From an uncultured Mycoplasmatota bacterium (GTDB lineage: Bacteria > Bacillota_I > Bacilli_A > RF39 > UBA660), in NCBI GenBank assembly GCA_900551455.1, contig URVV01000003.1, forward strand, positions 13,097 through 77,096: a stretch of 64,000 nucleotides of DNA. The letters are read 5' to 3'. This document shows, piece after piece, positions 27,649 to 60,345 of the stretch. The notes below the pieces were generated by a model that was given only the letters and a program-made list of their open reading frames with translations, was not told the DNA's origin and made no database searches. The position numbers and the translations under genes are program-made. How positions within the stretch are numbered: position 1 is the stretch's first letter; every line of letters starts with the position of its first letter.

Positions 27649-29472
27649 CTACTCTACAGTTACTGATTTAGCAAGATTTCTTGGTTTATCTATATCTAGG
27701 CCTCGAAGTTTAGCAACTTCATATGATAGAAGTTGAAAGGCTGGAGCTACTAATAGTGGAGTAAGTAATAAATTTGTTGTTGGAACTGTGATTGTTTGCT
27801 GACAAAAATTAAGTGATGGATAATTTTTTTGAATATTTGTGGTAGTAATAATAACGGGTTTTGCTCCTCTTGAAATAGTCTCTTTTAAATTACTAATTGT
27901 TTTATCAGCAATGGTTTCATCTGTAATAATAGATATTACTGGGGTTTTATCTGTAATTAGAGAAATTGTTCCGTGTTTTAGTTCCCCAGCGTGGTAACTT
28001 TCGGAATGGATATAAGATATTTCTTTAATTTTTAATGATGCTTCCATACAAAGAGATGAGTCTATTTTTCTGCCAATAAAGAAAATATCATTTTGTTTAT
28101 AAATTGTTTTAGCAATATCAAGATATAACTTTCGATTATTGATTATTTTTTCTATTTCTTTAGGTAGACGTTGATATTCTTTAAAAATTACTGATAATTC
28201 TTTAGAGGTTAAAGTTTTATTTTTAATAGCTAGGTTTAATGCTAGTAGAGATAATACTAATACTTGTTGTGAATAAGCTTTTGTAGTTGCTACGGCTATT
28301 TCATATCCAACATTTAGATAAATAACTTTATCAACTTCTCTGGCAATGCTTGATCCAACGACATTAACTATTCCTAGAGTATCTAAATGATTTTCTTTGG
28401 CTAATCTTAATGCTGCTAAGGTATCAGCTGTTTCTCCAGATTGAGATATTAATATAACAAGAGTATCTTTTTGATAAAAGTGTTTACTGTAACGGTACTC
28501 ACTAGCAATTGATACAGATACTTCTATGTTACCATATTCTTCAATTAAATTCTTACCAATTAATCCAGCGTGATATGCACTACCACAAGCAACAATATCT
28601 ATTTTTTTATATTTAGAGAGATCTGGGAAGGAAGAAGACATTTCATTGTTTTCAAATGATATGTAATGATTAATAAAGTTATTAATAGCTGGGACTTCAT
28701 CATATATTTCTTTTATCATATAATGGGGGAAACCATTTTTTTGAGCTTCTTCTTTAGTACCATTATAAGTATTAATAGTTTTATTTAAAAGATTTAGTTT
28801 TTTATCATAAATAGTTACTTTATCTTTAGTAAGAACAGCAATATCTTCTTGATCTAGTAAGTAATATTTATTTGTTTCATTTAAAATGGCTGGAACATCT
28901 GATGAAATAAAGTTTTCTTCAGTTGATAAGCCAATGATTAATGGGCTATCTTTTCTAGTAGCATATAGAGTGTTTAAGTCATCATCAAAAATAATAGCTA
29001 GAGCATAACTTCCTCTTATTTTTTCTGTTAATAGTTGAATTGATTTTAGTGGGTCTTTATTATTTTTGATTATTTTATCAAGATAAGCACATATTACTTC
29101 TGAATCAGTATCTGATTTAAATTGATAATTATCATTTAATAATTCTTGTTTTAAGTCTAGATAATTTTCAATAATTCCATTATGAACAAGGGTTACTTTC
29201 CCTACTTTATGGGGATGAGCATTTTTAATATTTGGAATACCGTGAGTAGCCCATCTGGTATGACCAATACCGATATTTGATTCTTCTTCATTTTTGATTT
29301 TTTCCTCAAGGTTAATTATTTTACCTGGAGATTTTATTATTTTTATTTTGTTTTTATTTGCAATGGCAATTCCTGCTGAATCGTATCCACGATATTCTAA
29401 GGATTTTAATCCTTCAAGTAGAACTTTGATTGCCTTTTTTTCTTTTCCTATGTAGCCGATAATTCCGCACAT
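27649..29472 (-). CDS. glmS: Glutamine--fructose-6-phosphate aminotransferase
   Basis: MCGIIGY N-terminal nucleophile, two SIS domains and the C-terminal ...NLAKSVTVE; 607 aa. Confidence 0.97.
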   Translation of the reverse strand: MCGIIGYIGKEKKAIKVLLEGLKSLEYRGYDSAGIAIANKNKIKIIKSPGKIINLEEKIKNEEESNIGIGHTRWATHGIPNIKNAHPHKVGKVTLVHNGIIENYLDLKQELLNDNYQFKSDTDSEVICAYLDKIIKNNKDPLKSIQLLTEKIRGSYALAIIFDDDLNTLYATRKDSPLIIGLSTEENFISSDVPAILNETNKYYLLDQEDIAVLTKDKVTIYDKKLNLLNKTINTYNGTKEEAQKNGFPHYMIKEIYDEVPAINNFINHYISFENNEMSSSFPDLSKYKKIDIVACGSAYHAGLIGKNLIEEYGNIEVSVSIASEYRYSKHFYQKDTLVILISQSGETADTLAALRLAKENHLDTLGIVNVVGSSIAREVDKVIYLNVGYEIAVATTKAYSQQVLVLSLLALNLAIKNKTLTSKELSVIFKEYQRLPKEIEKIINNRKLYLDIAKTIYKQNDIFFIGRKIDSSLCMEASLKIKEISYIHSESYHAGELKHGTISLITDKTPVISIITDETIADKTISNLKETISRGAKPVIITTTNIQKNYPSLNFCQQTITVPTTNLLLTPLLVAPAFQLLSYEVAKLRGLDIDKPRNLAKSVTVE

Positions 29473-29494
29473 AATAATCCTCCTTATGTTTTAA

Positions 29495-29620
29495 TATATC
29501 TTTTGTTGTAATGTTGATTTTACTTTTTTTGATATATCTTACGAGGATAATCCCCGTGATGGCATCCGCCGAATATTTCGATAACCATCAACCTCGTCGA
29601 CTTAAGTCCTGGCGCTTATT
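29495..29620 (-). ncRNA. glmS ribozyme (GlcN6P-dependent self-cleaving riboswitch)
   Basis: The minus strand reads A/AGCGCCAGGACUUAAGUCGACGAGGUUGAUGGUUAUCGAAAUAUUCGGCGGAUGCCAUCACGGGGAUUAUCCUCGUAAG. It contains the conserved AGCGCC, GACGAGG and UAUCGAA-N-UUCGGCGGAUGCC core blocks and sits in the glmS 5' leader. Confidence 0.85.
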
Positions 29621-29671
29621 ATAATTAATTTACTGCCCTCCCCATTTCATTATAACTATTTATATTATATT

Positions 29672-29699: not shown

Positions 29700-30279
29700 C
29701 TAATTATTTAATTTTTTTTGATACCATTTAGCAAACTCTTCGATAGCACTACTTGATTTGTCTATTTTCTTGCGGTTTTCTCTTTCTTCGGGAGTCATTT
29801 GGGCTAGAGTTTTAGTTAAGCCGTTGGGAATAAAGATATACCACAAATCAGACCATTTCTCTTGGTGATCTAGGCCTTGCTTTTCACTTGAAAGTGAACC
29901 TTTACTTTCTCCGTAAAAATATTTAATAGTTTCTCCATCATAGTAAGCAAGACATTCTTTAAATTGGCATTTTTTATTGCTTTTATTTTTCATTAATTCT
30001 AGTATTCCATCTATTCCAATGGTATCTAGAGTGAAGTTGACAAAAGCTTTGGGAAAACCATTTAGTTCTTCGATAAAGAAACCAGAATCGAGAGCTATGC
30101 AGGGCTTTTTGACAACTTGATAAGCTTCTTTTAACTTTGGCGGTAGCAATTCCTTTGATACTATCGCTACGAGGTTCAGATAGTTCATATTCGTAAGTAG
30201 AAATTTTTAAACCTTTGAAGTATTTTTCAGCAGATTTGGCTTTTCCTTTATTGTGAGTAACAAACACTATTTCTTTCAT
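29700..30279 (-). pseudogene. Ham1/RdgB-like non-canonical NTP pyrophosphatase, interrupted by a +1 frameshift in an A4 run (or a sequencing error)
   Basis: ORF 29983-30279 (MKEIVFVTHNKGKAKSAEKYF...GIATAKVK) and ORF 29700-30188 (...KEAYQVVKKPCIALDSGFFIEELNGFP...) join into one Ham1-like protein if one A is removed from AAAA at 30129-30132 (plus-strand TTTT). Confidence 0.65.
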
Positions 30280-30610
30280 AATTCCTCCTTAAATCTTATT
30301 CTTATATTAATGAATAAATTTTTTATAATTTTATTATATTACTTATATAGGAAGTATTATGGCTATATAATTAAATTTACTTGGTTAGATATTATATTTT
30401 ATCTTAAGACTTAAGATAAATTCTTTTTTTGGGATTACAAGGAATGCCGGTATCATATGAGAGATCTAGAAAGATATTATTTAAAGGGGTAATAGTGATA
30501 TTATCATAAAGATATTTATTTACGGTATTGATGGCTTCGATGGTTGCCTCGATAGATTTTTCATATAGTTCAATTAAACTTTCAGAATGAACTTCTTTTG
30601 GTTCGTGGGC

Positions 30611-30655
30611 TTATTTACCACAACATTGTTTATATTTACGTCCTGAGCCACAAGT
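30611..30655 (-). repeat. SEC-C-motif ORF 3'-end remnant, copy 1 (att-like)
   Basis: It encodes RTCGSGRKYKQCCGK-stop with a TGA two codons upstream, so there is no gene body. The first 27 nt (TTATTTACCACAACATTGTTTATATTT) are identical to 49165-49191. Confidence 0.7.
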
Positions 30656-30777
30656 TCGTCATTTTTCAGTATATATGATACTATGAAATATATATAGTAT
30701 TATATGTTTTTCAAGGAAAAATGAGTCTGAACAGTATTGGTATTATGTCATACATATAATATATATATAACTATACG

Positions 30778-30808
30778 TTTTTTTATTTTTGCGCACAAAT
30801 TGCACACA
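30778..30808 (+). repeat. Direct repeat DR-a, left copy (TTTTTTTATTTTTGCGCACAAATTGCACACA)
   Basis: It matches 37902-37932 (TTTTTTATTTTTCGCACACAAATTGCACACA) at about 29 positions with two small indels. A related unduplicated site is at 49326-49363. Confidence 0.65.
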
Positions 30809-30866
30809 TTGTTATCATCAGCATTCGTTCTCTACTTAAAATTATAACATTTTTTTATATAAAAAT

Positions 30867-32831
30867 CTATAATTCACCTTTATAAAAATAAATTTTCATT
30901 GCATCTTCGTTATAGGTAGGTTTTGAAATATCTATATTTAGAAAATTTGATATATAATATATTAAATATTGAGATGAAATCAATAAATCATACTCACATA
31001 ATATTCCATCATATCTACTTTCAATTATCAAATTTTGATCTTTTTCTAAATATTCCAATAGTTTTTTCTCATATAAATTTGTAGTTTTTTGCTTAAAATA
31101 AATATTTTTTTTATGACTTAAATGCTCGTAATTAATAAATCTTCCATGTGAAAAATTTTTCTTTTCATGAATTAAACAATTATATATACCAGACTCAATT
31201 ATTTTACTTTCTAAATCACTACCAGCAGATTCAGTAAAATCTCCTGTAAAAATATTAAAACTATTTCCTTCTTTTAAAAATTCTTTTAGTTTTTTTTTAT
31301 TTTCTTTAAAATATTTGTCAAAGTAATTTTTCCAATAATTTATACTATCTCTAATAAACTCTTGAATATCATTTCTTGAGTTTTTTTCAAAAAATAATTT
31401 TAAAAATAAACTAGCTGGAGCCAATGCTCCTTCAAAAGATAAGAATCCTCTCTCTTTTCCTTTATTTGTACCTGTTCGATATGAAATAACATTATTTTTA
31501 GATATTCCAGTTTTTGTTACAACCTTTTGTAATTCACCTTTTGTTATAATATATTTATTATCGTTATTAATTAAACTTGTTGATACAAGTAAATCATTTG
31601 TTGTTCCAGAGTAAGTAAACAAAAATACTGAATCAACACTATTATTGTTTCTATAATATAGGTCTCTAGGATATAAAGCTATTGTATTTATCCCATATAA
31701 ATGATTAATAAGTTTAGATGAAAATTTTGCTCCTGAAAAAGAACCACCAGTTCCCACAAAAATACTATTATTAAAACTTTCAAAATCTATTTTAGCTAAC
31801 TTATTATAAGCACTACTATTAATAGCATTAATTATTCTTGTTTCTAAATTATTAATATTTATATTACATCTTTTTATTTGTTTCCTTAATGAAATATTAA
31901 AATTACTGCAAGTGCAAGCATCTTTCACTTTTTTTATTTTATATAAATTTTGTATATGTCCTCGTGCACCAAACTTTTTTACAACCTTTTTTGTAAGTTT
32001 AGTTGCTTTTTCAAAAGTTGAATCTATAAATTTACAATCAATAATATAGTTATTTTTTATATACTCGCTAATAAACATTGAAAAAAACGCATCACCAGCA
32101 CCTGTTGGATCAACTTCTACCTCTGGATTACTTAACTCTTTATTGACTTTATTATTATCAAAAACAAAATCTGAACCTTTTTTTCCTCTAGTTACAATTA
32201 TCATTTTAGGATGTAGTATATTATATATCTCTTCCAATGATTTTATAGAAAATCTATTTTTCAAATATTTTTCAACTCGTTCATTTAAGTTTATAGCATC
32301 AAATTTATTTTTAATTTTTTCTAGTATTTCATTATCATTATAATTTTCTAATTCAAAATATTGTCCCAAATCTAACATTTTTCTATTATTACAATTATCT
32401 ATAATAATTTGATTTTTATTGTTTAAATTGTCAAAAACCAAAACATCATCTTTATTAATTTGTTTCAAAATATCATTTGGTTCTATTTTACTTTCTTCAT
32501 ACCATCTTTTTATATTGCAAAATGGGCATCTTTTTTTTGAAGCAAACTCTAATTTGCCATTTAATTCTTGATATGACACATGAAAGCAACGTGTATTTAT
32601 ATCTTCTAGTCTTTTTACATTATCAATATTTGTTCCAACTTCCTTTAAGCTATTAATTGCTATAGTACCTGCCATATCATCACCACATACACCACAAACA
32701 GATGTTTCCAAACCTAGTTTAGCAATATTAGCAATTATATTATGAGAAGTCATTCCTCCATTTATTCCTACCAATTTACCATTTTTATAATAAAAATCTG
32801 TAACTAAATCTCCAATACTAATTATTTTCAT
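30867..32831 (-). CDS. Fusion protein: PfkB-family sugar/nucleoside kinase (N) + SIS phosphosugar-binding/isomerase-like domain (C)
   Basis: N-terminal part: IGDLVTDFYY, GGMTSHNIIANIAKLG and the PfkB signature DPTGAGDAFFSMF, with a CPFCN insert. C-terminal part: FVGTGGSFSGAKFSSKL resembles the SIS G-x-G-G-S loop (compare GmhA GNGGS). Confidence 0.6.
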   Translation of the reverse strand: MKIISIGDLVTDFYYKNGKLVGINGGMTSHNIIANIAKLGLETSVCGVCGDDMAGTIAINSLKEVGTNIDNVKRLEDINTRCFHVSYQELNGKLEFASKKRCPFCNIKRWYEESKIEPNDILKQINKDDVLVFDNLNNKNQIIIDNCNNRKMLDLGQYFELENYNDNEILEKIKNKFDAINLNERVEKYLKNRFSIKSLEEIYNILHPKMIIVTRGKKGSDFVFDNNKVNKELSNPEVEVDPTGAGDAFFSMFISEYIKNNYIIDCKFIDSTFEKATKLTKKVVKKFGARGHIQNLYKIKKVKDACTCSNFNISLRKQIKRCNININNLETRIINAINSSAYNKLAKIDFESFNNSIFVGTGGSFSGAKFSSKLINHLYGINTIALYPRDLYYRNNNSVDSVFLFTYSGTTNDLLVSTSLINNDNKYIITKGELQKVVTKTGISKNNVISYRTGTNKGKERGFLSFEGALAPASLFLKLFFEKNSRNDIQEFIRDSINYWKNYFDKYFKENKKKLKEFLKEGNSFNIFTGDFTESAGSDLESKIIESGIYNCLIHEKKNFSHGRFINYEHLSHKKNIYFKQKTTNLYEKKLLEYLEKDQNLIIESRYDGILCEYDLLISSQYLIYYISNFLNIDISKPTYNEDAMKIYFYKGEL

Positions 32832-32843
32832 TCATTCACCTAC

Positions 32844-33497
32844 TTAAATATTTTTTTCTAACCACTCATACAAATACTTATCTTTAAAAGCATGTGAAGT
32901 TAAAAAATGATTATCATTTTCTATAATTTTTAATTCTATATTTTTTGAATCAATATTTTTAAGTTTATTATAAGCTTGTATACTTTCATTAACATCAATA
33001 ACATCATCATTATTACCATGATATATTAAAATTGCTTTGTCTTTTACTTGTGATAAAGTTTGATTAATAGGAAGCATTATACCTCCAGACACAGATACTA
33101 TACCTTTAAATATTCCAGGTCTTGACATAATATAATTCCAAGCACCAAACGCCCCCATACTACTTCCTAAAATACATACTCTATTTTTATCATATTTATA
33201 TTCTTTATAAACTTCTTCTAAAATTTTTTCTACATCCCTTAAATGATAATCCCAAAAATTGTTGTTGGTACATTGTGGAGCAACTACAATATAAGGGATA
33301 TTAAACTTATTCATATATTTAGGCAAAGCATATTTCTCTACATCTTCTACTTTATTGCCTCTTTCTCCTATACCATGTAAAAACAATAGTAATGGCAAAT
33401 CACTTTCTTTTGTTTCTGGATCATAAACAATATAATTTATATTACAAAAATTACTATCATTAAGTTTACAATATTTTTTTAACATATATCCTACCAC
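32844..33497 (-). CDS. Alpha/beta-hydrolase fold esterase (carboxylesterase/phospholipase-like)
   Basis: LLLFLHGIGERG oxyanion region, nucleophile elbow GSSMGAFGAW, and late D and H residues (NDDVID, NDNHF); 217 aa. Confidence 0.65.
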   Translation of the reverse strand: MVGYMLKKYCKLNDSNFCNINYIVYDPETKESDLPLLLFLHGIGERGNKVEDVEKYALPKYMNKFNIPYIVVAPQCTNNNFWDYHLRDVEKILEEVYKEYKYDKNRVCILGSSMGAFGAWNYIMSRPGIFKGIVSVSGGIMLPINQTLSQVKDKAILIYHGNNDDVIDVNESIQAYNKLKNIDSKNIELKIIENDNHFLTSHAFKDKYLYEWLEKNI

Positions 33498-34171
33498 CTT
33501 ACTTTCACTAAATTTTTATTTACTTTTAGATTGTATATATTTTGTTGTAAATTATTGAAAAATAATCCCATATGATATCCATCTTGAAATGCATGATTTA
33601 CTAGTAATGAAATATCTATAAGATATCTATCATCATCTAAATAATATTTCCCCCAACAAATTTTAGGTTTACTGTTTTTTTCATTAAAATCAATCGCATC
33701 TTTAAAATTTGAAAAAGTAATCCATGGGATACAAGTTATATTTATTTTATTCATATTTTCCAATCCTAATATTTTATAGTACGGAACATTATTAGATGCG
33801 TCTTCTGTAGCCTTTGAAAATTCTATAAGAAAATTTGAAATATCTTCATCATATTCAACATATCTCGTAAAATTTAATTCATTATCACTATTTATAACAG
33901 TTGCTGTTGCTGCTAAAGTATCATATTTATAAACAAATTCATTTCCGTCTTCTTTACCAAAACCATACTTAAATGCATCAATATCATTCAATGATTTCAG
34001 TACAAAATAAGTCATGCAACCATAAAATGAAATTTTATTTTGTTTACAAAAATTTATTAAATTAGTTATATCTATTTTAGTAACTATGCCTGTATATGGA
34101 TCACTGTAACTTGAAAATGTTTCATATGCTAATTTTCGTTTCCAATTATATATGTCAATTTTAGTTTTCAT
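33491..34171 (-). CDS. Chloramphenicol acetyltransferase (CAT, type A) family acyltransferase, divergent
   Basis: By eye it aligns to CAT_I along its whole length: IDIYNWKRKLAYETF vs VDISQWHRKEHFEAF, CIPWITFSNF vs ANPWVSFTSF, and GKYY...LLVNHAFQDGYHMG vs GKYY...IQVHHAVCDGFHVG. The catalytic His is retained. Confidence 0.7.
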   Translation of the reverse strand: MKTKIDIYNWKRKLAYETFSSYSDPYTGIVTKIDITNLINFCKQNKISFYGCMTYFVLKSLNDIDAFKYGFGKEDGNEFVYKYDTLAATATVINSDNELNFTRYVEYDEDISNFLIEFSKATEDASNNVPYYKILGLENMNKINITCIPWITFSNFKDAIDFNEKNSKPKICWGKYYLDDDRYLIDISLLVNHAFQDGYHMGLFFNNLQQNIYNLKVNKNLVKVRW

Positions 34172-36491
34172 TCTTCATCTTCCTTTTTACATATAATACT
34201 TCACTCTTTTTAGAATAGTTGCCATTTTTTGCTAAACATTCTAGTATTTTTCTTCTATTTAAATCAAAAATCCCTAAAGAGTCTTCATATGGATTTGTAC
34301 TATACGGATCTCTCCAACTATATGGACTAGAGAAATATAAACCTTCTATAAAATTAAAGAAATGTCTATAATCTACAGCTCCATGATTAGGCATGAACAT
34401 TTGGCTAATTCTATTAACTCCTGGATACCTTACAGCAACTATTTTATCAACATCAATACCTATATCATAAAAAGTAGTTATAGCTAGTTGCATTGTTTTA
34501 CCAGTTAATAAATTGTCATCTAATATAATATATTCTTTTTGTTTATCAATTCCAAAAAGTTCGATACCACCAGTTTTAAAAATATCAAAAAATCTTAATT
34601 CTAACGATTGCTTTTTTGCATATCCTGTTACATTCTTGTTAAATTTTAGTATAGAAACATCATTTATTCTATCATCTATTGATTTCATTATAATTGGTAA
34701 TTCTAAACCACCATAACATAATCCACAGATACCTTTATTAGAAATATTAGAATCTTTTTGTAGCGTTAAACTACAAGTAATAAAGTTTTCTGCAAAATTA
34801 TCTATCTCTCTGTATGCTCTAAAATCTTTAGAATAATTCTCTTTTTTAGGTTGTTTAATAAAATTCAATCTAAACTCATTAGTAATTAAAATTATATTTT
34901 TAATTAAATTTTCTATTTCAATACTATTAATTTTATAGTTTTCATCGAATGAAATATTTTTCATCAAATTTTCAGTACTTATTAAACTATTATATAGTTT
35001 GTACATTAATGAATCTTTAACTAATGTTTCCAAATTAACCATTACATTTTTTTCTATCTGATTATTAACAATTTGTTGATTTAATAGAATTAACAAATAA
35101 TTTCTAACATTATCTATTAACCCTAATATCATTTTTACATTATTTAAGTCATTTATATCTAATGTATTATTAATTACTATTAAAGACTTTGAAAAAAATT
35201 TCATATTATTATTTAACCATTCATATATCATTTCTTTAGTTGTTATATCTTTTCGTGTATTTTCGTCATGAATTCTTTGTGATAAAAAATAATAATATAT
35301 ACCAGAACCTCTTAATAATATATTTTCATTATCATACATTGAATAACACAAACTAGAATCGTTATATGTAAGCCATAATTGTTTTAGTGGATTATTATCT
35401 GGTATAGTAATCCATTCATACATAGGAATTTTTATGCTTCCACTTGACGAATCAAATAAACTAACTATTCCATCTACTGCCTGAAATTTATCATTAATTA
35501 AATTATTAAAATATGTAATTTTATTGTTTTTTCCTTGTGTCATTTTCTTTTCCACTTTAGCATAGGCTCTTGCATATTCGCTTTGTATAGCATGTTCCAA
35601 GCAAATTGTAGGTAATAATTTTACTTTTTTTAATAAACTTAAAGTACCATTTATACCTGTTATTATTTTTCCATTATCAATAACTGGAAAACATTTATCA
35701 AAATCTCCACTTGTTTTTTCAACGCTAAATCCTTGTGGACAATTTAACATAGAATAATCGTTTCCAAGTTGATCACCACAATCTCCAATTCGAAGCATTG
35801 AATTTTGTGGAATACCTATCATTCTTTCAGCAACTTGTATGGCTTTATTTTTGGTGGCAGTACCTATTTGTAAAACTTGTTTGCCATTATGCATTCCTAT
35901 TGTTAAGTTTAAATTTGTGTTTTGTGAATTTCTTATTAATGAATTAATAATTCTTATTATTTCATTCTCAAATTTTACGCTATCGTTCAAAATCATTATT
36001 CTTATATTTATTATAGCACTTGTTTCAGAATCTATTGAATATGTAATTTTACAATGTTCATTTAAAATAGATGTATTTAATAAAGAAAGAATTTTTTTAT
36101 TTAATTCTTCTAATTTAATAAAATCTTCTTTAGATGATATATATTCACTAATATTAAAAAGTTTTTCACTATCACCACTAGTCATAAATATCCTTGCACC
36201 ATCATTAGTAAGTGCATACATTTTTAATAATTGTTTTTCAGTAACATCGTATTTGTTTCTTAAATCATAAATAATATCACTTAATAAATCATTTAATCCA
36301 GTCTCTCCTCTACCTGTGATAAAAACTACCGGAATATGCTTTTTTAATATATTTGCTAGCATTGGCAAAATACGAGAATCAATCTTTGCTGAATTATCTT
36401 TTGTTAACGTTCCATCGATATCGAAGCATACTGCATTGTATTTTTGTTGCAATGCTCTTTGATAATTATTTAACAATTCTTCATTCATCAT
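34161..36491 (-). CDS. 776-aa fusion: HAD-IIB (Cof-type) phosphatase (N) + unknown helical middle + type I phosphoribosyltransferase-like domain (C)
   Basis: HAD motif I CFDIDGTLT, motif II FITGRG and motif IV IGDCGDQLGNDYSM. The C-terminus has the PRPP-loop-like YIILDDNLLTGKTMQLA preceded by CGLCYGGLELP. Confidence 0.6.
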   Translation of the reverse strand: MMNEELLNNYQRALQQKYNAVCFDIDGTLTKDNSAKIDSRILPMLANILKKHIPVVFITGRGETGLNDLLSDIIYDLRNKYDVTEKQLLKMYALTNDGARIFMTSGDSEKLFNISEYISSKEDFIKLEELNKKILSLLNTSILNEHCKITYSIDSETSAIINIRIMILNDSVKFENEIIRIINSLIRNSQNTNLNLTIGMHNGKQVLQIGTATKNKAIQVAERMIGIPQNSMLRIGDCGDQLGNDYSMLNCPQGFSVEKTSGDFDKCFPVIDNGKIITGINGTLSLLKKVKLLPTICLEHAIQSEYARAYAKVEKKMTQGKNNKITYFNNLINDKFQAVDGIVSLFDSSSGSIKIPMYEWITIPDNNPLKQLWLTYNDSSLCYSMYDNENILLRGSGIYYYFLSQRIHDENTRKDITTKEMIYEWLNNNMKFFSKSLIVINNTLDINDLNNVKMILGLIDNVRNYLLILLNQQIVNNQIEKNVMVNLETLVKDSLMYKLYNSLISTENLMKNISFDENYKINSIEIENLIKNIILITNEFRLNFIKQPKKENYSKDFRAYREIDNFAENFITCSLTLQKDSNISNKGICGLCYGGLELPIIMKSIDDRINDVSILKFNKNVTGYAKKQSLELRFFDIFKTGGIELFGIDKQKEYIILDDNLLTGKTMQLAITTFYDIGIDVDKIVAVRYPGVNRISQMFMPNHGAVDYRHFFNFIEGLYFSSPYSWRDPYSTNPYEDSLGIFDLNRRKILECLAKNGNYSKKSEVLYVKRKMKNEN

Positions 36492-36500
36492 AAAAACCTC

Positions 36501-36980
36501 CTATAAAATTCTACTTAAAGTTTTTACAGTTTCAAATTGATTAACAGATTTTAAGTCTTCGTTAAAGTAAATACTCTTTCCACCTTTTTGTTCCCACTCA
36601 ATTAAATTTTTAATATTATCATCAATTAAAATTTCTCCATTATTTGGTAAATATATTTGACTTTTTTTCACATGAGGTGGAACAAATAATATTGGTATTT
36701 CTACCTTTCTACTTCTTAATGCCTTTACTTTTGCTTCCATTTCAACTAAAGTATGTATTTTAGTTAAAATAGAAAGCTGCTTTGAACTAGCCTGTCCTTC
36801 CAAAATATATTCAATAGCATTATTTATTACTTTAGATTCCTCTAATAATTGGAACCAATCTAATTTTTCAAAAAATTCATTCCAACTCATATCAGGTTTT
36901 TGATTTTTTCTTTCAACAACTCTCTTTTCTGTATCAAAGATTACTCCATCAAAATCAATAAATATTTTTTGATTAGTCAT
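36501..36980 (-). CDS. HAD-superfamily 5'(3')-deoxyribonucleotidase-like (NT5C family) phosphatase
   Basis: IFIDFDGVIFDT (DxDxV motif I) and the late LIDDNIKNL motif; 159 aa, typical of small NT5C-type nucleotidases. Confidence 0.55.
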   Translation of the reverse strand: MTNQKIFIDFDGVIFDTEKRVVERKNQKPDMSWNEFFEKLDWFQLLEESKVINNAIEYILEGQASSKQLSILTKIHTLVEMEAKVKALRSRKVEIPILFVPPHVKKSQIYLPNNGEILIDDNIKNLIEWEQKGGKSIYFNEDLKSVNQFETVKTLSRIL

Positions 36981-37002
36981 AGTTATCTCCTCTTGTAAAT
37001 AT

Positions 37003-37011
37003 ATTATATCA
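37003..37011 (-). promoter_or_regulatory. Extended -10 promoter element (TGATATAAT) for the five-enzyme operon
   Basis: It lies in the 57-bp gap between the WYL gene stop and the ATG at 36980. It is followed by the RBS GAGGAG. Confidence 0.4.
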
Positions 37012-37037
37012 TATATATAGGCAGTATTATGTCTTAA

Positions 37038-37631
37038 TTATTTATTGTTTAACTTTATTCTATCAATTTCAAAATGTCTAATATCATCTCTAAGTTCGCA
37101 ATATGCTGTTACATAAAACTTATTATCATAATTAAATATTTGTAAGGGATGAATCATTCTTTCTTGCCATTCTTGTTTTAAATTCCTATATAATATTTTT
37201 AGTGGTGTTTTATTTGAAATTGAATCATTTAAAGTAAAATATAATTCAGATTTATCACTAGTACCATTATCTAAAAAATATTTACTTTTTTCCTCATCTA
37301 CATCACTTGCAAATTTAATTTTATTAATTAGTTTTTTATATTTTACAATATCTTCATATTCTAATTTTTCTAACATCTTATCAACATTTTCTAATAATTG
37401 AAGATCATATTTATTAAAATGATTATATTGGTTTTTGATATTTAGTATATAATATCCTCCATTTGGTCCCATAAAGGTTTCTATTGGAATTCCAGCCTGT
37501 TCTAATTCTACTTTATAATACCTAACCATGCGTTCAGTAATACCTATTTTTTCTGATAGTTCCTTTACAGTATATTTATTACCTGTATTCAGATAGTTTA
37601 ACATTTGAATTGCATTTGATATTTTGCCCAT
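37038..37631 (-). CDS. HTH + WYL-domain transcriptional regulator
   Basis: The N-terminal wHTH is YTVKELSEKIGITERMVRYYKVELEQAGIPI (DeoR/HTH_11 type). The C-terminus LKILYRN...ERMIHPLQIFNYDNKFYVTAYCELRDDIRHFEIDRI is the WYL-domain pattern. Confidence 0.75.
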   Translation of the reverse strand: MGKISNAIQMLNYLNTGNKYTVKELSEKIGITERMVRYYKVELEQAGIPIETFMGPNGGYYILNIKNQYNHFNKYDLQLLENVDKMLEKLEYEDIVKYKKLINKIKFASDVDEEKSKYFLDNGTSDKSELYFTLNDSISNKTPLKILYRNLKQEWQERMIHPLQIFNYDNKFYVTAYCELRDDIRHFEIDRIKLNNK

Positions 37632-37844
37632 TTTTTCACTTCCTTTATTTTATTATATCATTTAATACCATTAATTTTATTAAATCAACATGAATTTTAC
37701 TTAAATTTTATTATATTAGAAATTACTTTTAACTAAATTTAATTTTTAATTAATTTGACAGTATTCACTTGTGCCATAAATTTTTTCCTCCTCTAAATCT
37801 TTTAGAGAACGAAAAAAATCAACACGAATGTTGATTTCATGATT

Positions 37845-37953
37845 TTGTGTGCATAACACAAACCCTTTATTTATATGGGTTAAATAGATTTGTGTGCATG
37901 ATTTTTTATTTTTCGCACACAAATTGCACACAATTTAATGATTTTGCACACAA
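37845..37953. repeat. Cluster of five TTGTGTGCA / TGCACACAA 9-mers (two in one orientation, three in the other)
   Basis: TTGTGTGCAT is at 37845 and 37889. GCACACAA is at 37915, and TTGCACACAA is at 37924 and 37944. An adjacent hairpin ATCAACA-cgaa-TGTTGAT is at 37818-37835. Confidence 0.7.
37902..37932 (+). repeat. Direct repeat DR-a, right copy
   Basis: See 30778-30808. Together the two copies bracket the whole cassette 30867-37631. Confidence 0.65.
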
Positions 37954-38003
37954 TTTAGCGTTTTTTTGACTAATCCCAATTGTACAAACCCTTATAAAAT
38001 AAG

Positions 38004-38048
38004 CTATTTACCACAGCACTGTTTGTACTTCTTACCACTTCCACATGG
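38004..38048 (-). repeat. SEC-C-motif ORF 3'-end remnant, copy 2
   Basis: It encodes PCGSGKKYKQCCGK-stop with a stop codon immediately upstream. It differs from copies 1 and 3 mainly at synonymous positions. A further degraded CGSGKK-like piece is at about 38061-38081. Confidence 0.65.
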
Positions 38049-49164: not shown

Positions 49165-49209
49165 TTATTTACCACAACATTGTTTATATTTCTTGCCACT
49201 ACCACAAGA
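49165..49209 (-). repeat. SEC-C-motif ORF 3'-end remnant, copy 3 (left att of the ICE)
   Basis: It encodes ...SSCGSGKKYKQCCGK-stop with no gene body upstream. The 27-nt identity to copy 1 is noted above. Confidence 0.7.
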
Positions 49210-49505: not shown

Positions 49506-50777
49506 TTACACCTCGTATTTGATTATTTTATTTATAATATCAGAGTTCATAACATTGTCAAAAATAATAGTTGCTTCTTTTCTTGAATCATTGGTACTTG
49601 ATATGTAATAGTTTTCAGTAGTTTCAACATTATTGTGTCCTAATATATCAGCAACATCTCGTAATTCTGTTCCATTCTTTAATATCGTCGTAGCATAACT
49701 TCCTCTTAAATCGTAAAATCTACATTTTGTTATTCCTAATTCATTATGTATAATTTTAAAAGGATAATTTATTAAATCAGTTCCAACATAAGTTCCATCT
49801 TCCTTAACAAAAACTAACTCAATTTTTTGGGAGTTTATATCACTTAAACTACTTTTAACAATTCTTTGTTCAATTTTTTTACCATACTCGTTTACAACAT
49901 CCTCTATATGATAATAATTATAATTTAAACTGCTTATTTTTTTTATATAGTCTTGCCTTTTCTTAAAATTTATTAGAGCATTACATAAAGTTTCACTCAT
50001 ATATATTTTTCTTTTACCTTTGAAAGTTTTTGTTGTGCCTATATACCATCTACCTTTTATATCTTTTGGCTTATCATAGATACTATGTTTAACATCAATT
50101 GTTTTATTCTCAAAATCAATATCATCCCAAGTTAATGCAAATACTTCTCCTGTTCTCATACCGGTAAAACAAGATGTTAAAAAGGCACAAGTAAATGGAC
50201 TATTATCTTTAAATCTTTCAAGTATTCTTTCTATTTCTTCCTTTGAATATAAATGCTTAATATCTTCTTCATATTTATCCATTTTTGGTAATCTTAATTG
50301 TATAGCAGGATCATATTTTATAAGACCATATTTAGTACAAGCATCACGAAAAGATCCTTTTACTACTTTTAATATATTTTTAAAATATGATCTTGAAAAA
50401 TCGTACTCCTCACATAAATTACTAATATATGTATTTAGTCCTACACTTGTTATAGTTGAAAGCTTATACATTCCAATTTTTGGCTTTATATATTTATTTA
50501 TTAGTGATTTGTAAGATTGTATTGTATTATATTTAAGATTAACCTTACAATAATTTTCTAACCAATAATCTAAATAATCACTATAAGATATATTACATTC
50601 CTTAAAAGGTACACCAGCTGTTTTATATTCATTATATGCTTTATTACCTGCCTCAATAGCTTCTGACTTAGTTCTAAATCCTGATTTGTTTATATATTTT
50701 CTTTTACCATTAACAGGTGCAATAGCAAACTGATATTGATATACCTTCCCTCTTTTCTGTATATAGACATTACCCAT
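49506..50777 (-). CDS. int: Tyrosine integrase (Tn916 Int-like, with N-terminal arm-binding domain)
   Basis: N-terminus MGNVYIQKRGKVYQYQF...GFRTKSEA (AP2-like arm binder). The catalytic region has GMRTGEVFAL, YDLRGSYAT and LGHNNVETTENYY. Confidence 0.9.
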   Translation of the reverse strand: MGNVYIQKRGKVYQYQFAIAPVNGKRKYINKSGFRTKSEAIEAGNKAYNEYKTAGVPFKECNISYSDYLDYWLENYCKVNLKYNTIQSYKSLINKYIKPKIGMYKLSTITSVGLNTYISNLCEEYDFSRSYFKNILKVVKGSFRDACTKYGLIKYDPAIQLRLPKMDKYEEDIKHLYSKEEIERILERFKDNSPFTCAFLTSCFTGMRTGEVFALTWDDIDFENKTIDVKHSIYDKPKDIKGRWYIGTTKTFKGKRKIYMSETLCNALINFKKRQDYIKKISSLNYNYYHIEDVVNEYGKKIEQRIVKSSLSDINSQKIELVFVKEDGTYVGTDLINYPFKIIHNELGITKCRFYDLRGSYATTILKNGTELRDVADILGHNNVETTENYYISSTNDSRKEATIIFDNVMNSDIINKIIKYEV

Positions 50778-51397: not shown

Positions 51398-51721
51398 TTT
51401 TTATTTTTCCTTTCTTATTTATGTATTAGAATTATACTCACTCCCCTAATACAGGGACTTAACAAACGACTAATTGCTAATTAGTTCCATAGGAATTTCA
51501 CCTCTCTGTGGTTCTCACAGAGTTGAGCCCATTGATTGAGTCTGTGGCTACTCAAAAGTATCATTATACTCATTACTTGTTATCGCAGTATTAAGAGCAA
51601 CTTAATATTTATAGTCAAGTATTTACCGACAAGCGTACTTACTAATGTGCTAACCGTTTTCAGTTATAATGAGAATGTATTTGTTAAGTGATTAACCAAA
51701 TTGTCAAAGATCAATTAGTTT

Positions 51722-58774: not shown

Positions 58775-58852
58775 AAAAAAAATTAAGGAGAGCAAACAAA
58801 CTCTCCTTTTAGTATGCCGGTGTTCCATAACCAAATATAACTTTACTATTTA
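58775..58852 (-). repeat. CHAP-hydrolase gene 3' end plus terminator (intact copy of the 54129-54206 repeat)
   Basis: See 54129-54206. The hairpin AAGGAGAG-caaacaaa-CTCTCCTT plus a T run follows the stop at 58809. Confidence 0.7.
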
Positions 58853-60344
58853 ATGAGTACACTTTTTGTCTACAAGTATCATCAGTAGAATTACCTTCTA
58901 TTGTATAAACTTTACCATTTTCTACTTTTTCAACTATTCCCACATGATTTACTTTTCCATCTACTTCCCAATCAAAAAATATTATATCCCCTTCTTTAGG
59001 GGTATATCCTTTTTCTTGCCATTCTCCCATCGCTTTAAACCAGTCAATTCCTGTTTGACAACCAGAAAATTTTGGAATAACACCTGCTTGTAGATATCCA
59101 CTTTGATTTGCAACCCAACTAACAAAAACAGCACACCATTCTACTCTTTCTTTAAAACCATACCATCTCCAATATGGTTCTCCTCCAACATTACCTACTT
59201 GTGATAATGCTATTTGTACCATATCAGGACTACCAACTGGTGTCCCATATATTACAGATGACCACATAATTGCATATTCATCACTTAAAGCATTTTTAAT
59301 TTGTTCTTTTTGCATAGGATTAAAAAAATACATATTCATCATTTCATCTACTGTCTTATGAGTTATTTTAATATATAATACTTTTTTAGTTATTTTATCT
59401 TGTGGATTATCAAAACTTATTTCATAACTCGTATTATTGTTTTCATCTTTAACTTCATAACTAATAGTATTCATATCCCAAAAAATTTTTTTTAATTCTT
59501 GCTTTTTCTTATCATCCATAGTAATAACATCTGCTGAATTATTACCTTTTGTTACTTTAGCAGTATAAATAGCAAGAACATCTTTCCATTCTGCACGATC
59601 TGATTCTATTTTATAATCATCGTGAGGATTATTATTTTGTATCTCAACTATCCTATCAGCCATTTCTTTATTTATTTCTTTTACTACACTACTCATAGGA
59701 ACTGTTCCTGTGCTTTCACTAGAAAAAAATATTCCTAACCAAGAAGTACAAATAAGACCAATTAAACAAATAATAACAACTATAATTATTGCAACCCAAC
59801 CACCAGCAAGTAGTAAAGAGATTAGTGCTTTTGTTCCAGCAATAATTCCTTTTACCATTGATACAGTTGCTTTAAATGCTGTTTTTATTCCTTTATAAGT
59901 TGTTTTTGCAGTTTTAACAGCTAACATTTTTGCTCTTTCAGTTGTTTTAACAGTTTGTTTAACAACTTTTGGAGTATCTTTAACAATCTTTTTACTTGTT
60001 TTAATCTTCTTCTTAACTTCTTTAATATTCTTTTTTTCAGTTAGTTTAGATTTTATGGTTTTAATCTTATTTTTTGTCTTAATAAAATTATCTTTTGTAT
60101 CTCTTACTGCCACATTACCTCTTGTTTTAATTTTACTAGAATTATATACTGCAAATTTTCCACCAGCACTTAATCTATTTACTGCATACTCATTTGCATT
60201 ATTTTCATTAGTATTACCATAGCTATTCTCTCCTCGTTCTTTAATACTAACTATGTTAGACTTTGCTTTATCTGTTGCTATTTTACCTTTATCAAGAGTT
60301 TTTATTGTTCCTTTTATTTTTTCTTTCTTTTTAATTTCTTTCAT
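58809..60344 (-). CDS. Conjugation-associated peptidoglycan hydrolase (Lys-rich N-terminus, TM, C-terminal CHAP/NlpC-P60 domain; Tn916 Orf14-like role)
   Basis: The C-terminus has a catalytic Cys context (EWCAVFVSW) and His (NHVGIVEKV...YTIEGN). A central TM is ALISLLLAGGWVAIIIVVIICLIGLI. Confidence 0.75.
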   Translation of the reverse strand: MKEIKKKEKIKGTIKTLDKGKIATDKAKSNIVSIKERGENSYGNTNENNANEYAVNRLSAGGKFAVYNSSKIKTRGNVAVRDTKDNFIKTKNKIKTIKSKLTEKKNIKEVKKKIKTSKKIVKDTPKVVKQTVKTTERAKMLAVKTAKTTYKGIKTAFKATVSMVKGIIAGTKALISLLLAGGWVAIIIVVIICLIGLICTSWLGIFFSSESTGTVPMSSVVKEINKEMADRIVEIQNNNPHDDYKIESDRAEWKDVLAIYTAKVTKGNNSADVITMDDKKKQELKKIFWDMNTISYEVKDENNNTSYEISFDNPQDKITKKVLYIKITHKTVDEMMNMYFFNPMQKEQIKNALSDEYAIMWSSVIYGTPVGSPDMVQIALSQVGNVGGEPYWRWYGFKERVEWCAVFVSWVANQSGYLQAGVIPKFSGCQTGIDWFKAMGEWQEKGYTPKEGDIIFFDWEVDGKVNHVGIVEKVENGKVYTIEGNSTDDTCRQKVYSLNSKVIFGYGTPAY

Positions 60345-60345
60345 A

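Follow-up and report, generated by a model that had tools for sequence, protein, structure and literature searches.

A mobile, WYL-headed operon of RF39-type gut bacteria and its possible role in the synthesis of a nucleoside-type metabolite

What does a compact operon that combines phosphatases, a sugar kinase and a phosphoribosyltransferase (PRTase)-like protein do in a gut bacterium, when its genes lie on a mobile element and behind a WYL-domain regulator? The question is raised by a stretch of 64,000 nucleotides from an uncultured Mycoplasmatota bacterium of the RF39 lineage (contig URVV01000003.1, positions 13,097 to 77,096 of the forward strand; the whole stretch is called the window below), in which six genes occupy positions 30867-37631. 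A first-pass annotation had put forward anti-phage defence as the lead reading and had named the synthesis of a modified nucleoside or sugar phosphate as an alternative. Our analysis tentatively favours, at somewhat less than even confidence, WYL-controlled synthesis of a nucleoside-type metabolite (an antimetabolite or a signal) with reversible masking.

The open reading frames (ORFs) were found as annotated at first pass, co-oriented and with overlaps or tiny gaps. The first gene encodes the WYL regulator (37038..37631 (-), 197 aa) and is followed by p159 (36501..36980 (-), 159 aa), a putative small HAD-like phosphatase, and by P776 (34161..36491 (-), 776 aa), in which an HAD-IIB (ISN1-like) phosphatase, a helical middle part and a type I (purine-type) PRTase-like part are joined. 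Two optional genes come next, CAT (33491..34171 (-), 226 aa), a divergent O-acyltransferase of the chloramphenicol acetyltransferase (CAT) fold, and an alpha/beta-hydrolase, the esterase (32844..33497 (-), 217 aa). The last gene, P654 (30867..32831 (-), 654 aa), encodes a PfkB/ribokinase-family kinase with a C-terminal, probably double, SIS phosphosugar domain. The successive gaps from WYL to P654 are 57, 9, -11, -7 and 12 bp. The AT-richness ascribed to the block was real and modest (23.8% GC, as compared with 26.3% in the window and 28.4% in glmS). None of the proteins passed a curated NCBIfam cut-off, the block had no riboswitch or non-coding RNA match in Rfam even at E<=1, and a promoter and terminator scan of this AT-rich DNA gave signals no better than those in shuffled sequence.

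P776 had zero Pfam matches; the PRTase model PF00156 did not match it, and TIGR01484 scored 41.1 bits against a cut-off of 41.8. The annotated HAD/PRTase fusion was nevertheless recovered at the level of structure, when an AlphaFold2 (AF2) model built on 25 homologues (pLDDT 79, pTM 0.81) was searched with Foldseek. The N-terminal part matched HAD-IIB/ISN1 structures at 1e-5 to 1e-7, the best matches of residues 1 to ~300 being the ISN1-type IMP-specific 5'-nucleotidases 6rmw and 8jb3 (3.7e-7 to 1e-6), and the C-terminus matched the purine PRTase 1vdm at 7.6e-3. Residues ~300-560 form a helical domain without a recognised relative. The HAD motif residues D24, D26, T59, K214, D237, N244 and D245 were invariant in 25/25 sequences, down to 56% identity. 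The likeness to the ISN1 enzymes thus consists of an HAD-IIB core with a large cap, at an identity of 13-16% and a TM-score, normalised to the target, of 0.4-0.5; unlike P776, the ISN1 enzymes come from eukaryotes and have no PRTase fused to them.

A profile of the P776 C-terminus, made from 21 diverse relatives, was compared with the PDB. The best match was again 1vdm (4.5e-4), the second-best was Prs 1u9y (3.7e-3), and Gpt-2, ComF, HPRT and PyrR came next. The loop ILDDNLLTGKT (YIILDDNLLTGKT), with D658-T666, which corresponds to the binding loop for phosphoribosyl pyrophosphate (PRPP), was invariant in 25/25 sequences. The modelled C-terminus fits a type I PRTase, in that a predicted PRPP-binding loop is placed on a PRTase fold.

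For P654, the fusion of a PfkB kinase with an SIS domain had been annotated. The PfkB part was firmly recovered (Pfam 4.3e-17, 62.8 bits against a cut-off of 25.8), and Foldseek matched the N-terminal half at ~1e-14 to fructokinase, AIRs kinase (AIR-riboside kinase), ribokinase and adenosine kinase. The GG (G25-G26), NxxE (N181-E184) and DPTGAGD (D241-D247) motifs were invariant, so that both the score and all motifs agree with a PfkB/ribokinase-family kinase; P654 reached no specific NCBIfam equivalog cut-off. The SIS part was recovered only weakly. Pfam SIS did not match P654, and a profile of its last 325 aa found double-SIS proteins only in the PDB (1j5x, 3tbf, 2aml and 2dec), with weak values from 1.5e-3 to 0.8. 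The motif YSGTTND was invariant in this part. An hhalign comparison of the C-terminus with the window's own GlmS (E 0.0047) aligned only the first SIS phosphate loop, and assignment of the C-terminus as a GlmS-type isomerase was rejected on this ground. We also gave up the idea, drawn from motifs, that its second half conserves the catalytic site of GlmS. Five cysteines, C102, C105, C306, C308 and C322, were invariant in 24 homologues; they lie in the kinase lid region and in the linker to the SIS half, and they may form a zinc site joining both halves.

The p159 protein had been annotated as an NT5C-like 5'(3')-deoxyribonucleotidase. It had no Pfam match at E<=0.01 and no NCBIfam family, its profile found nothing relevant in the PDB, and an hhalign comparison with an NT5C protein from a Bacillus gene cluster was not significant (E 0.19); membership of NT5C (PF06941) could thus not be demonstrated by any of these routes. 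What stood was the HAD character, as DxDGV, T73, K106 and D120-D121 were invariant in 14 orthologues, and the presence of the NT5C protein at the equivalent spot in the Bacillus cluster. We take p159 for a small HAD-like phosphatase, possibly a distant kin of the NT5C-like nucleotidases; given its HAD motifs, it may function as they do.

The call of a helix-turn-helix (HTH) WYL regulator was correct. PF13280 matched residues 133-193 (1.5e-15, 57 bits against a cut-off of 21.8), and HTH_11 matched residues 9-60 (E 1.9e-5) with 24.9 bits, just below Pfam's 25-bit cut-off. The best PADLOC match was the CRISPR-associated WYL model PDLC01457 (1.1e-28). The likeness to the BrxR/CapW type, which had been cited at first pass as a switch of phage-defence islands, was borne out for the HTH and WYL parts and not for the WCX domain. 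BrxR/CapW proteins have a length of about 300 aa; the present protein has 197 aa, and its WYL domain ends at 193, which leaves no room for a WCX domain. The BrxR/CapW architecture is wHTH-WYL-WCX (PMC11662680), and regulators of this type co-localise with defence systems, CapW sensing single-stranded DNA (ssDNA) (PMC9122601, PMC11662680). The likeness to them (PMC9122601, PMC9122588, PMC11662680) lies in an HTH+WYL gene at the head of a mobile accessory operon whose genes run in the same direction; the differences are the missing WCX dimerisation domain, the CRISPR-associated model as the top PADLOC match, and a downstream operon that matches no defence system. WYL regulators also govern non-defence genes, one example being the c-di-GMP-sensing regulator of L. 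plantarum (PMC11880434). It is plausible that the window protein is a ligand-gated repressor.

To see which of the six genes belong together, each GTDB species was represented by one genome and scanned; this gave 86 loci, of which 80 were kept. Most of the 80 are from gut metagenome-assembled genomes (MAGs) labelled uncultured Bacilli, Tenericutes or Mollicutes, and eight carry other, unconfirmed taxon labels. The named genera Coprosoma and Faecisoma have been placed in the order RF39 (PMC8035907). P776 was present at 80/80 loci and P654 at 76/80, the four misses being contig ends, and P654 adjoined P776 at every locus where the contig permits. WYL was found at 71/80 loci (absent despite room in 4), p159 at 69/80 (absent despite room in 7), the esterase at 16/80 (5 of these without CAT) and CAT at 12/80. 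The numbers of close metagenomic relatives were >600 for P776 and >1,100 for P654. The annotated six-gene set is thus real but not fixed: the conserved unit is the P776+P654 pair, nearly always accompanied by WYL and p159, together with a variable slot.

The slot lies between P776 and P654 and was empty in about 55/80 loci. CAT and the esterase filled it in 12 loci and in the window, the esterase alone in 5, and a DHH/DHHA1 phosphoesterase with an APH-family kinase in 6. The CAT-family call was well supported (PF00302, 8.7e-30, 104.7 bits against a gathering cut-off of 23.5). CatA has a cut-off of 270 bits, of which the protein reached 111, and with the CatA-like families 1-3 of NCBIfam, whose cut-offs are 250-300 bits, it scored 68-78; since it failed all these curated cut-offs, it was not classified as a type A chloramphenicol acetyltransferase or as CatA-like 1-3. 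Its residues 192-198 read NHAFQDG, at what we take to be the position of the catalytic HHxxxDG motif. The esterase call was supported by Abhydrolase_2 (3.9e-14), Peptidase_S9 (5e-14) and a GSSMG nucleophile elbow. Judged by the families of its occupants, the slot holds what are predicted to be opposed enzyme pairs, one member putting a group on and the other taking it off.

Such pairs have counterparts in antibiotic producers, where pac/napH of the puromycin pathway and StrA/StrK of the streptomycin pathway provide self-resistance through masked intermediates. The likeness is that one pathway operon encodes both an enzyme that transfers an acetyl or phosphoryl group and the hydrolase that takes this group off again. 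The slot pairs differ in being optional, about 55/80 loci being without either, and in their CAT and APH folds, which are unrelated to pac.

Evidence on the kind of pathway came from distant relatives of the P776 C-terminal module (aa 305-776), which formed 282 clusters at 50% identity among 1.84 billion proteins and for which Pfam has no model. The module occurs as a standalone protein of ~470 aa, in an N-terminally extended form of ~560 aa, and fused to HAD-IIB (~800 aa); the relatives P0279 and P0285 pass Hydrolase_3. Further fusions carry a C-terminal Trp/Tyr-tRNA-synthetase-like domain (tRNA-synt_1b) and, once, TIR. The TIR fusion is P0383 (1039 aa), in which an N-terminal TIR_2 domain (2e-14) stands upstream of the mid-PRTase module.

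On the Bacillus cereus plasmid pRML02 (locus L088; NZ_CP011157.1, 97-115 kb), a 473-aa module member (27% identity, 4e-33) is followed by a CatA-like gene, to which the window CAT is 32% identical (2e-40), and then by a Pfam-detected NT5C nucleotidase. The pRML02 cluster also contains BtrH_N/DUF6005, an aminotransferase, an acyl carrier protein (ACP), a pyridoxal phosphate (PLP) decarboxylase, an adenylate-forming (AMP-binding) enzyme and an ABC transporter, and a MetRS gene lies upstream of it on the opposite strand. Locus L092 has a pRML02-like layout without MetRS. Three other loci are from low-GC metagenomic contexts (about 25% GC). L089 has an APH, the mid-PRTase protein, a TrpRS-like gene that overlaps its neighbours in the operon, CAT, an HAD-like protein, a GNAT and two TyrRS; the APH of the RF39-type slot is homologous to this APH. 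L090 has a PLP decarboxylase, a radical SAM protein, the mid-PRTase, a GNAT, CAT, then a true p159 homologue (hhalign 1.7e-33) and a MetRS-like gene. L093 has all six genes of the RF39-type block, with a TrpRS-like gene directly behind them and GNATs around. L089 and L093 also share a short upstream Rel-like gene (72% identical), so that, among related bacteria, one and the same region of the chromosome hosts different types of cluster. A TrpRS-like link was also sought in the RF39-type loci and rejected, with zero matches in the 80 flanks; the link was limited to L089, L093 and the fusion proteins.

As far as can be read from these gene families, the recurring core is a PRTase module with a CAT-like acyltransferase and a small HAD protein, and the periphery, which varies, has the look of activating and transferring amino acids, together with spare aminoacyl-tRNA synthetases (aaRSs). 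Organisms that produce aaRS inhibitors commonly protect themselves with spare synthetases. The alternative that had been named at first pass, a modified nucleoside or sugar phosphate with self-resistance through the acetyltransferase and esterase, gains support from this recurring trio, from the aaRS-bearing clusters and from the opposed slot pairs.

The operon itself has a set for group transfer, phosphate removal and sugar tailoring, comprising the PRTase-like domain, two HAD phosphatases and the PfkB/SIS fusion. Starting from the observed gene content, folds, motifs, mobility, distribution and partnerships, we infer the substrates, the direction of the steps, the product and its biological target as follows. 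The PfkB domain of P654 would phosphorylate a sugar or nucleoside, and the SIS domain would isomerise, or aminate or deaminate, the resulting sugar phosphate. The purine-PRTase-like domain of P776 would then link a base to the activated phosphosugar through a glycosidic bond, and the ISN1-like HAD domain and/or p159 would strip the phosphate and free the nucleoside. Where slot pairs are present, either the CAT-like acyltransferase with the esterase or the APH with the DHH phosphoesterase would add and remove a masking group and so protect the producer. The WYL regulator would gate expression on a nucleotide-like or ssDNA ligand.

A known pathway with comparable logic is that of angustmycin/psicofuranine (agm) in Streptomyces, which comprises sugar-phosphate tailoring, a pyrophosphokinase, an adenine phosphoallulosyltransferase and a phosphatase (PMC8599513). 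In both cases, a tailored and activated sugar phosphate is (in the present case, would be) joined to a purine by an APRT-like transferase and then dephosphorylated (PMC8599513). The agm pathway uses an epimerase, a dedicated pyrophosphokinase and separate small enzymes, whereas the present operon has a PfkB/SIS fusion and no pyrophosphokinase, its transferase is fused to the HAD phosphatase via a novel helical domain, it is headed by a WYL regulator, and its host is an uncultured low-GC gut bacterium. The parallel is drawn at the level of enzyme logic, not of sequence homology. The folds are familiar and the overall logic is like that of known nucleoside pathways; what is new are the HAD-helical-PRTase and PfkB-SIS fusions, the new domain family, the writer/eraser slot and the secA-targeting carriage in an uncultured gut lineage.

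Several points weigh against nucleoside synthesis. The PRTase fold could, as judged from the profile matches, also be that of a PRPP sensor or of a pyrophosphokinase. Pfam and NCBIfam revealed no dedicated pyrophosphokinase or exporter among the six genes, so that the activated sugar would have to come from a housekeeping Prs. With no aaRS-like gene, ACP or ligase, the four-gene core is unable to yield products as elaborate as those that the distant clusters imply. The SIS assignment, by profile (1.5e-3) and by comparison with GlmS (E 0.0047), is weak. WYL regulators are familiar chiefly as part of defence islands and DNA-damage regulons rather than of biosynthetic clusters, and the one family member with an N-terminal TIR_2 domain hints at immunity.

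The possibility exists that the enzymes do not build a compound but consume one. The unit would then be a cassette by which an exogenous gut compound is catabolised, salvaged or detoxified, for example an Amadori-type glycated amine, a nucleoside antibiotic or some unusual nucleoside; P654 would be a fused FrlD/FrlB-like kinase-deglycase, P776 and p159 would recycle base and phosphate, and CAT or APH would inactivate a toxic analogue. FrlD and FrlB are a PfkB-family kinase and a GlmS-like double-SIS deglycase that act on the same sugar, and the PfkB plus double-SIS architecture of P654 parallels them; fructoselysine 6-kinase was also among the weak, below-cut-off NCBIfam matches to P654 (2.3e-10). 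The differences from FrlD/FrlB are that the two parts are fused in P654, with a conserved cysteine cluster between them, that the score is far below the FrlD family cut-off, and that the SIS part is weakly recognisable. CAT and APH are classic drug-modifying families, the genomes of RF39 are small, and traits of this sort are often borne by mobile cassettes. However, the unit contains no transporter or sugar-specific regulator, CAT falls below the CatA and CatA-like cut-offs, and a modifying enzyme combined with the hydrolase that reverses it makes little sense for resistance alone. Relatives of the module lie, moreover, in clusters with an ACP, an adenylating enzyme and an ABC transporter, which are anabolic features. 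We consider such a cassette unlikely.

How the operon is carried bears on whether it could be a housekeeping pathway. The whole mobile unit, common to the nearest relatives, is 7.44 kb long (30605..38045); by blastn, the window from 30593, 30605 or 30612 to 38045 was 91-95% identical to loci L032, L008 and L030. It is bounded by two att-type duplicates of the 3' end of secA. The distal one (30611..30658 (-); RTCGSGRKYKQCCGK / CGSGRKYKQCCGK, each with its stop) was identified by comparing its translation with the SecA C-terminus of L001, and the proximal one (38004..38048 (-); PCGSGKKYKQCCGK with its stop) by tblastn to SecA residues 819-832 (100%). The direct repeats that had been said to bound the block were confirmed as a 41-nt pair of repeat family D2 (80% identity), at 30778..30818 (+), with the core GCACACAAATTGCACAC, and at 37902..37942 (+); they lie inside the secA remnants, which stand outside them. 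An array of TGTGTGCA/GCACACAA motifs (37846-37960), one copy of which falls within the second direct repeat, lies just upstream of the WYL gene, and these motifs could be candidate integrase arm sites or a WYL operator.

The island had been described as integrase-less, and what is left in the window is a 3' remnant of a tyrosine integrase of ~25 codons (37697..37771 (-); tblastn to residues 210-234 of the L001 integrase, 60%, E 0.001). The nucleotide homology of the window to L001 extends to 37765. A tyrosine integrase is found upstream of WYL in the relatives L001, L009, L012 and L032, and the unit lies no more than a few kb downstream of intact secA in L001, L009 and L030, directly adjacent to it in L030. 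A tRNA was rejected as the integration site, since the window contains none; the 3' end of secA serves as the attachment (att) site. A small integrative element directed at this site carries the block as its only cargo; the attachment site is duplicated, and the element's own recombinase has been lost, apart from the remnant.

Clustering of 1,204 flanking ORFs revealed no neighbour family common to more than 14 of the 86 loci, which rules out the syntenic housekeeping position that the first-pass annotation had named as counting against its proposal. A recombinase was present within 8 kb in 11/80 loci, often directly adjacent. Since the flanks are non-syntenic, recombinases lie within 8 kb in these 11 loci and the attachment site is duplicated, the operon is accessory and not housekeeping. 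One could still hold that it serves ordinary RF39 purine salvage, with an HGPRT-like enzyme, nucleotidases and a nucleoside kinase, and lies near mobile DNA by chance. At least 80 species-level genomes from a single lineage carry the operon, its catalytic residues are conserved, and at L082, the only locus where the module and glmS could be compared, P776 (49%) and P654 (57%) have diverged to a degree close to that of glmS (59%). The flanking genes are not conserved, however; integrases are directly adjacent in several loci, att duplications bound the unit, the slot content varies, P776 is repeatedly disrupted, a WYL regulator precedes the enzymes, and no protein reaches a curated salvage-enzyme cut-off. 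Ordinary salvage is therefore very improbable.

The disruptions concern P776, which is split in 9/80 species-level loci, and not P654 (0/80). The nine splits into two ORFs are at nine different positions (L012, L030, L032, L037, L039, L046, L072, L079 and L082). If disruptions were proportional to gene length, the chance of all nine falling in P776, calculated from the two gene lengths, would be about 0.004. This skew suggests that the activity of P776 is costly. The splits may reflect selection against a costly enzyme, or sequencing errors in the MAGs.

A costly or toxic effector is also what anti-phage defence would lead one to expect. In that case, the WYL repressor would sense infection or DNA damage and de-repress enzymes that drain or corrupt the nucleotide pool, or make an antiviral nucleoside analogue, whereupon phage replication stops. 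Other features are in line with this: an HTH-WYL gene heads the operon, and BrxR/CapW-type regulators co-localise with defence (PMC9122601, PMC11662680); a small integrative element carries the operon and nothing else, within a stack that includes Type III restriction-modification (R-M); PRTase-like proteins are predicted effectors of retrons (PMC7736814); and the TIR_2 domain of one family member has been mentioned. The type III retron effectors resemble the present protein in being divergent type I PRTase-like proteins in a mobile, conflict-associated context (PMC7736814). They differ in that the PRTase part is here embedded in a 776-aa HAD-phosphatase fusion, and the operon has no reverse transcriptase, no ncRNA in Rfam and no winged-helix partner.

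With PADLOC-DB v2.0, applied to the six proteins and four neighbours, the only matches were WYL (to generic WYL models) and Type III R-M; the other five proteins of the operon had none at E<=0.01. Among the immediate neighbours at the 80 genomes (127 genes, one on each side), NUDIX (7), ABC ATPases (6), MerR (5), arylsulfotransferase (4) and GNAT (4) were the most frequent, and about 8 of the 127 matched a specific defence model: AbiLi (3), AriA (3), Type I S (1) and SspH (1). The AriA matches could be generic ATPases, the remaining matches were of a generic ATPase type, and the count covers the nearest gene on each side, without a background rate. Beside the module, a large arylsulfotransferase (ASST, 1e-102) was the direct neighbour in L015, L018, L039 and L082, and NUDIX was the commonest neighbour (7/127). 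No copies were present in 50,697 INPHARED phage records or in IMG/VR, a result that is neutral for a host defence gene and rules out a prophage-borne origin; Foldseek against BFVD gave a generic phage HAD hydrolase only. The statement that the gene set matches no named defence system or cluster held, as PADLOC recognised WYL only, NCBIfam nothing, and no published description of the set was found. A 2026 domain-centric survey of defence likewise leaves PRTase, HAD and kinase components unmentioned.

In addition, the WCX domain that marks the defence-associated family is missing from the WYL protein, the neighbours are heterogeneous, the distant homologues lie in biosynthetic-looking clusters, and the opposed slot pairs have no obvious part in pool depletion. 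Thus, phage defence did not receive positive support as the lead reading, and we consider it rather unlikely. The same grade applies to the route by which a pool would be drained, namely a nucleotidase, a PRTase running in reverse or futile kinase/phosphatase cycling.

Defence and biosynthesis overlap if the product is an antiviral nucleoside. It is conceivable, but in our view quite unlikely, that the operon encodes an inducible chemical weapon, in which a signal sensed by WYL (DNA damage, ssDNA or a nucleotide) triggers the formation of a masked, that is acetylated or phosphorylated, nucleoside antimetabolite that a hydrolase unmasks against phage or competitors. If so, the P776 C-terminal module would be a new enzyme family that builds the scaffold of aaRS-linked nucleoside compounds in low-GC Bacillota.

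RF39 bacteria are uncultured, have small genomes, and inhabit the guts of humans and animals. They are functionally almost blank, and a cassette that integrases move and that occurs in at least 80 RF39 species probably matters for their ecology. The partnerships of the module with CAT-like proteins, small HADs, APH and aaRS paralogues point to unexplored nucleoside-based metabolites in low-GC Bacillota, including a B. cereus plasmid. If the product is bioactive, an antimetabolite of this kind would be a new source of compounds that target aaRSs or nucleotides; if the operon is a defence system, the phosphatase-PRTase and kinase-isomerase fusions would represent a new effector logic. With its 4-6 genes the operon is compact, and its synthesis is feasible. 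The pRML02/L092-type cluster is uncharacterised and biosynthetic-looking, and its plasmid-borne copy on pRML02 gives a culturable handle on the protein family.

The element is one of a stack, as had been noted, and at least three elements share one secA 3'-end attachment site. The tandem array in the window consists of this unit, a second element and a third. The second contains a phage replisome-organiser gene and the Type III R-M system that had been placed next to the island, whose Mod (2e-122) and Res (3e-15) were recognised by PADLOC. Two further repeat pairs, 38252-38292/42928-42968 (41 nt, 83%) and 38156-38186/47268-47298 (31 nt, 84%), bracket the Type III R-M and a larger segment, which suggests nested insertions in the second element. 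A third secA 3'-end remnant lies at 49165..49206 (-). The third element has an intact tyrosine integrase (49506-50777 (-)) and conjugation-type genes. This integrase is 66-74% identical, at the nucleotide level, to the integrases that flank the WYL operon in relatives. A pemK RNA motif is present in the same element (51487-51567 (-), Rfam RF02913, 65 bits), and a TraG/VirB4-like ATPase and a CHAP lysin lie at 58809-62661 (-); the intact secA is outside the window.

On the other side of the unit, the core chromosome resumes. A gene for XTP/dITP diphosphatase, rdgB/ham1 (29700-30279 (-)), adjoins the distal att remnant and consists of two overlapping ORFs (model positions 2-59 and 50-184), either a frameshifted pseudogene or an assembly error. 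A glmS ribozyme/riboswitch (29484-29627 (-), Rfam RF00234, 82.6 bits) is located upstream of glmS (27649-29472). The GC skew of the plus strand is positive over 1-30 kb and strongly negative over 31-64 kb, with the switch at about 30000-31000, at the boundary between core and mobile DNA, and the genes on both sides of this flip are on the minus strand.

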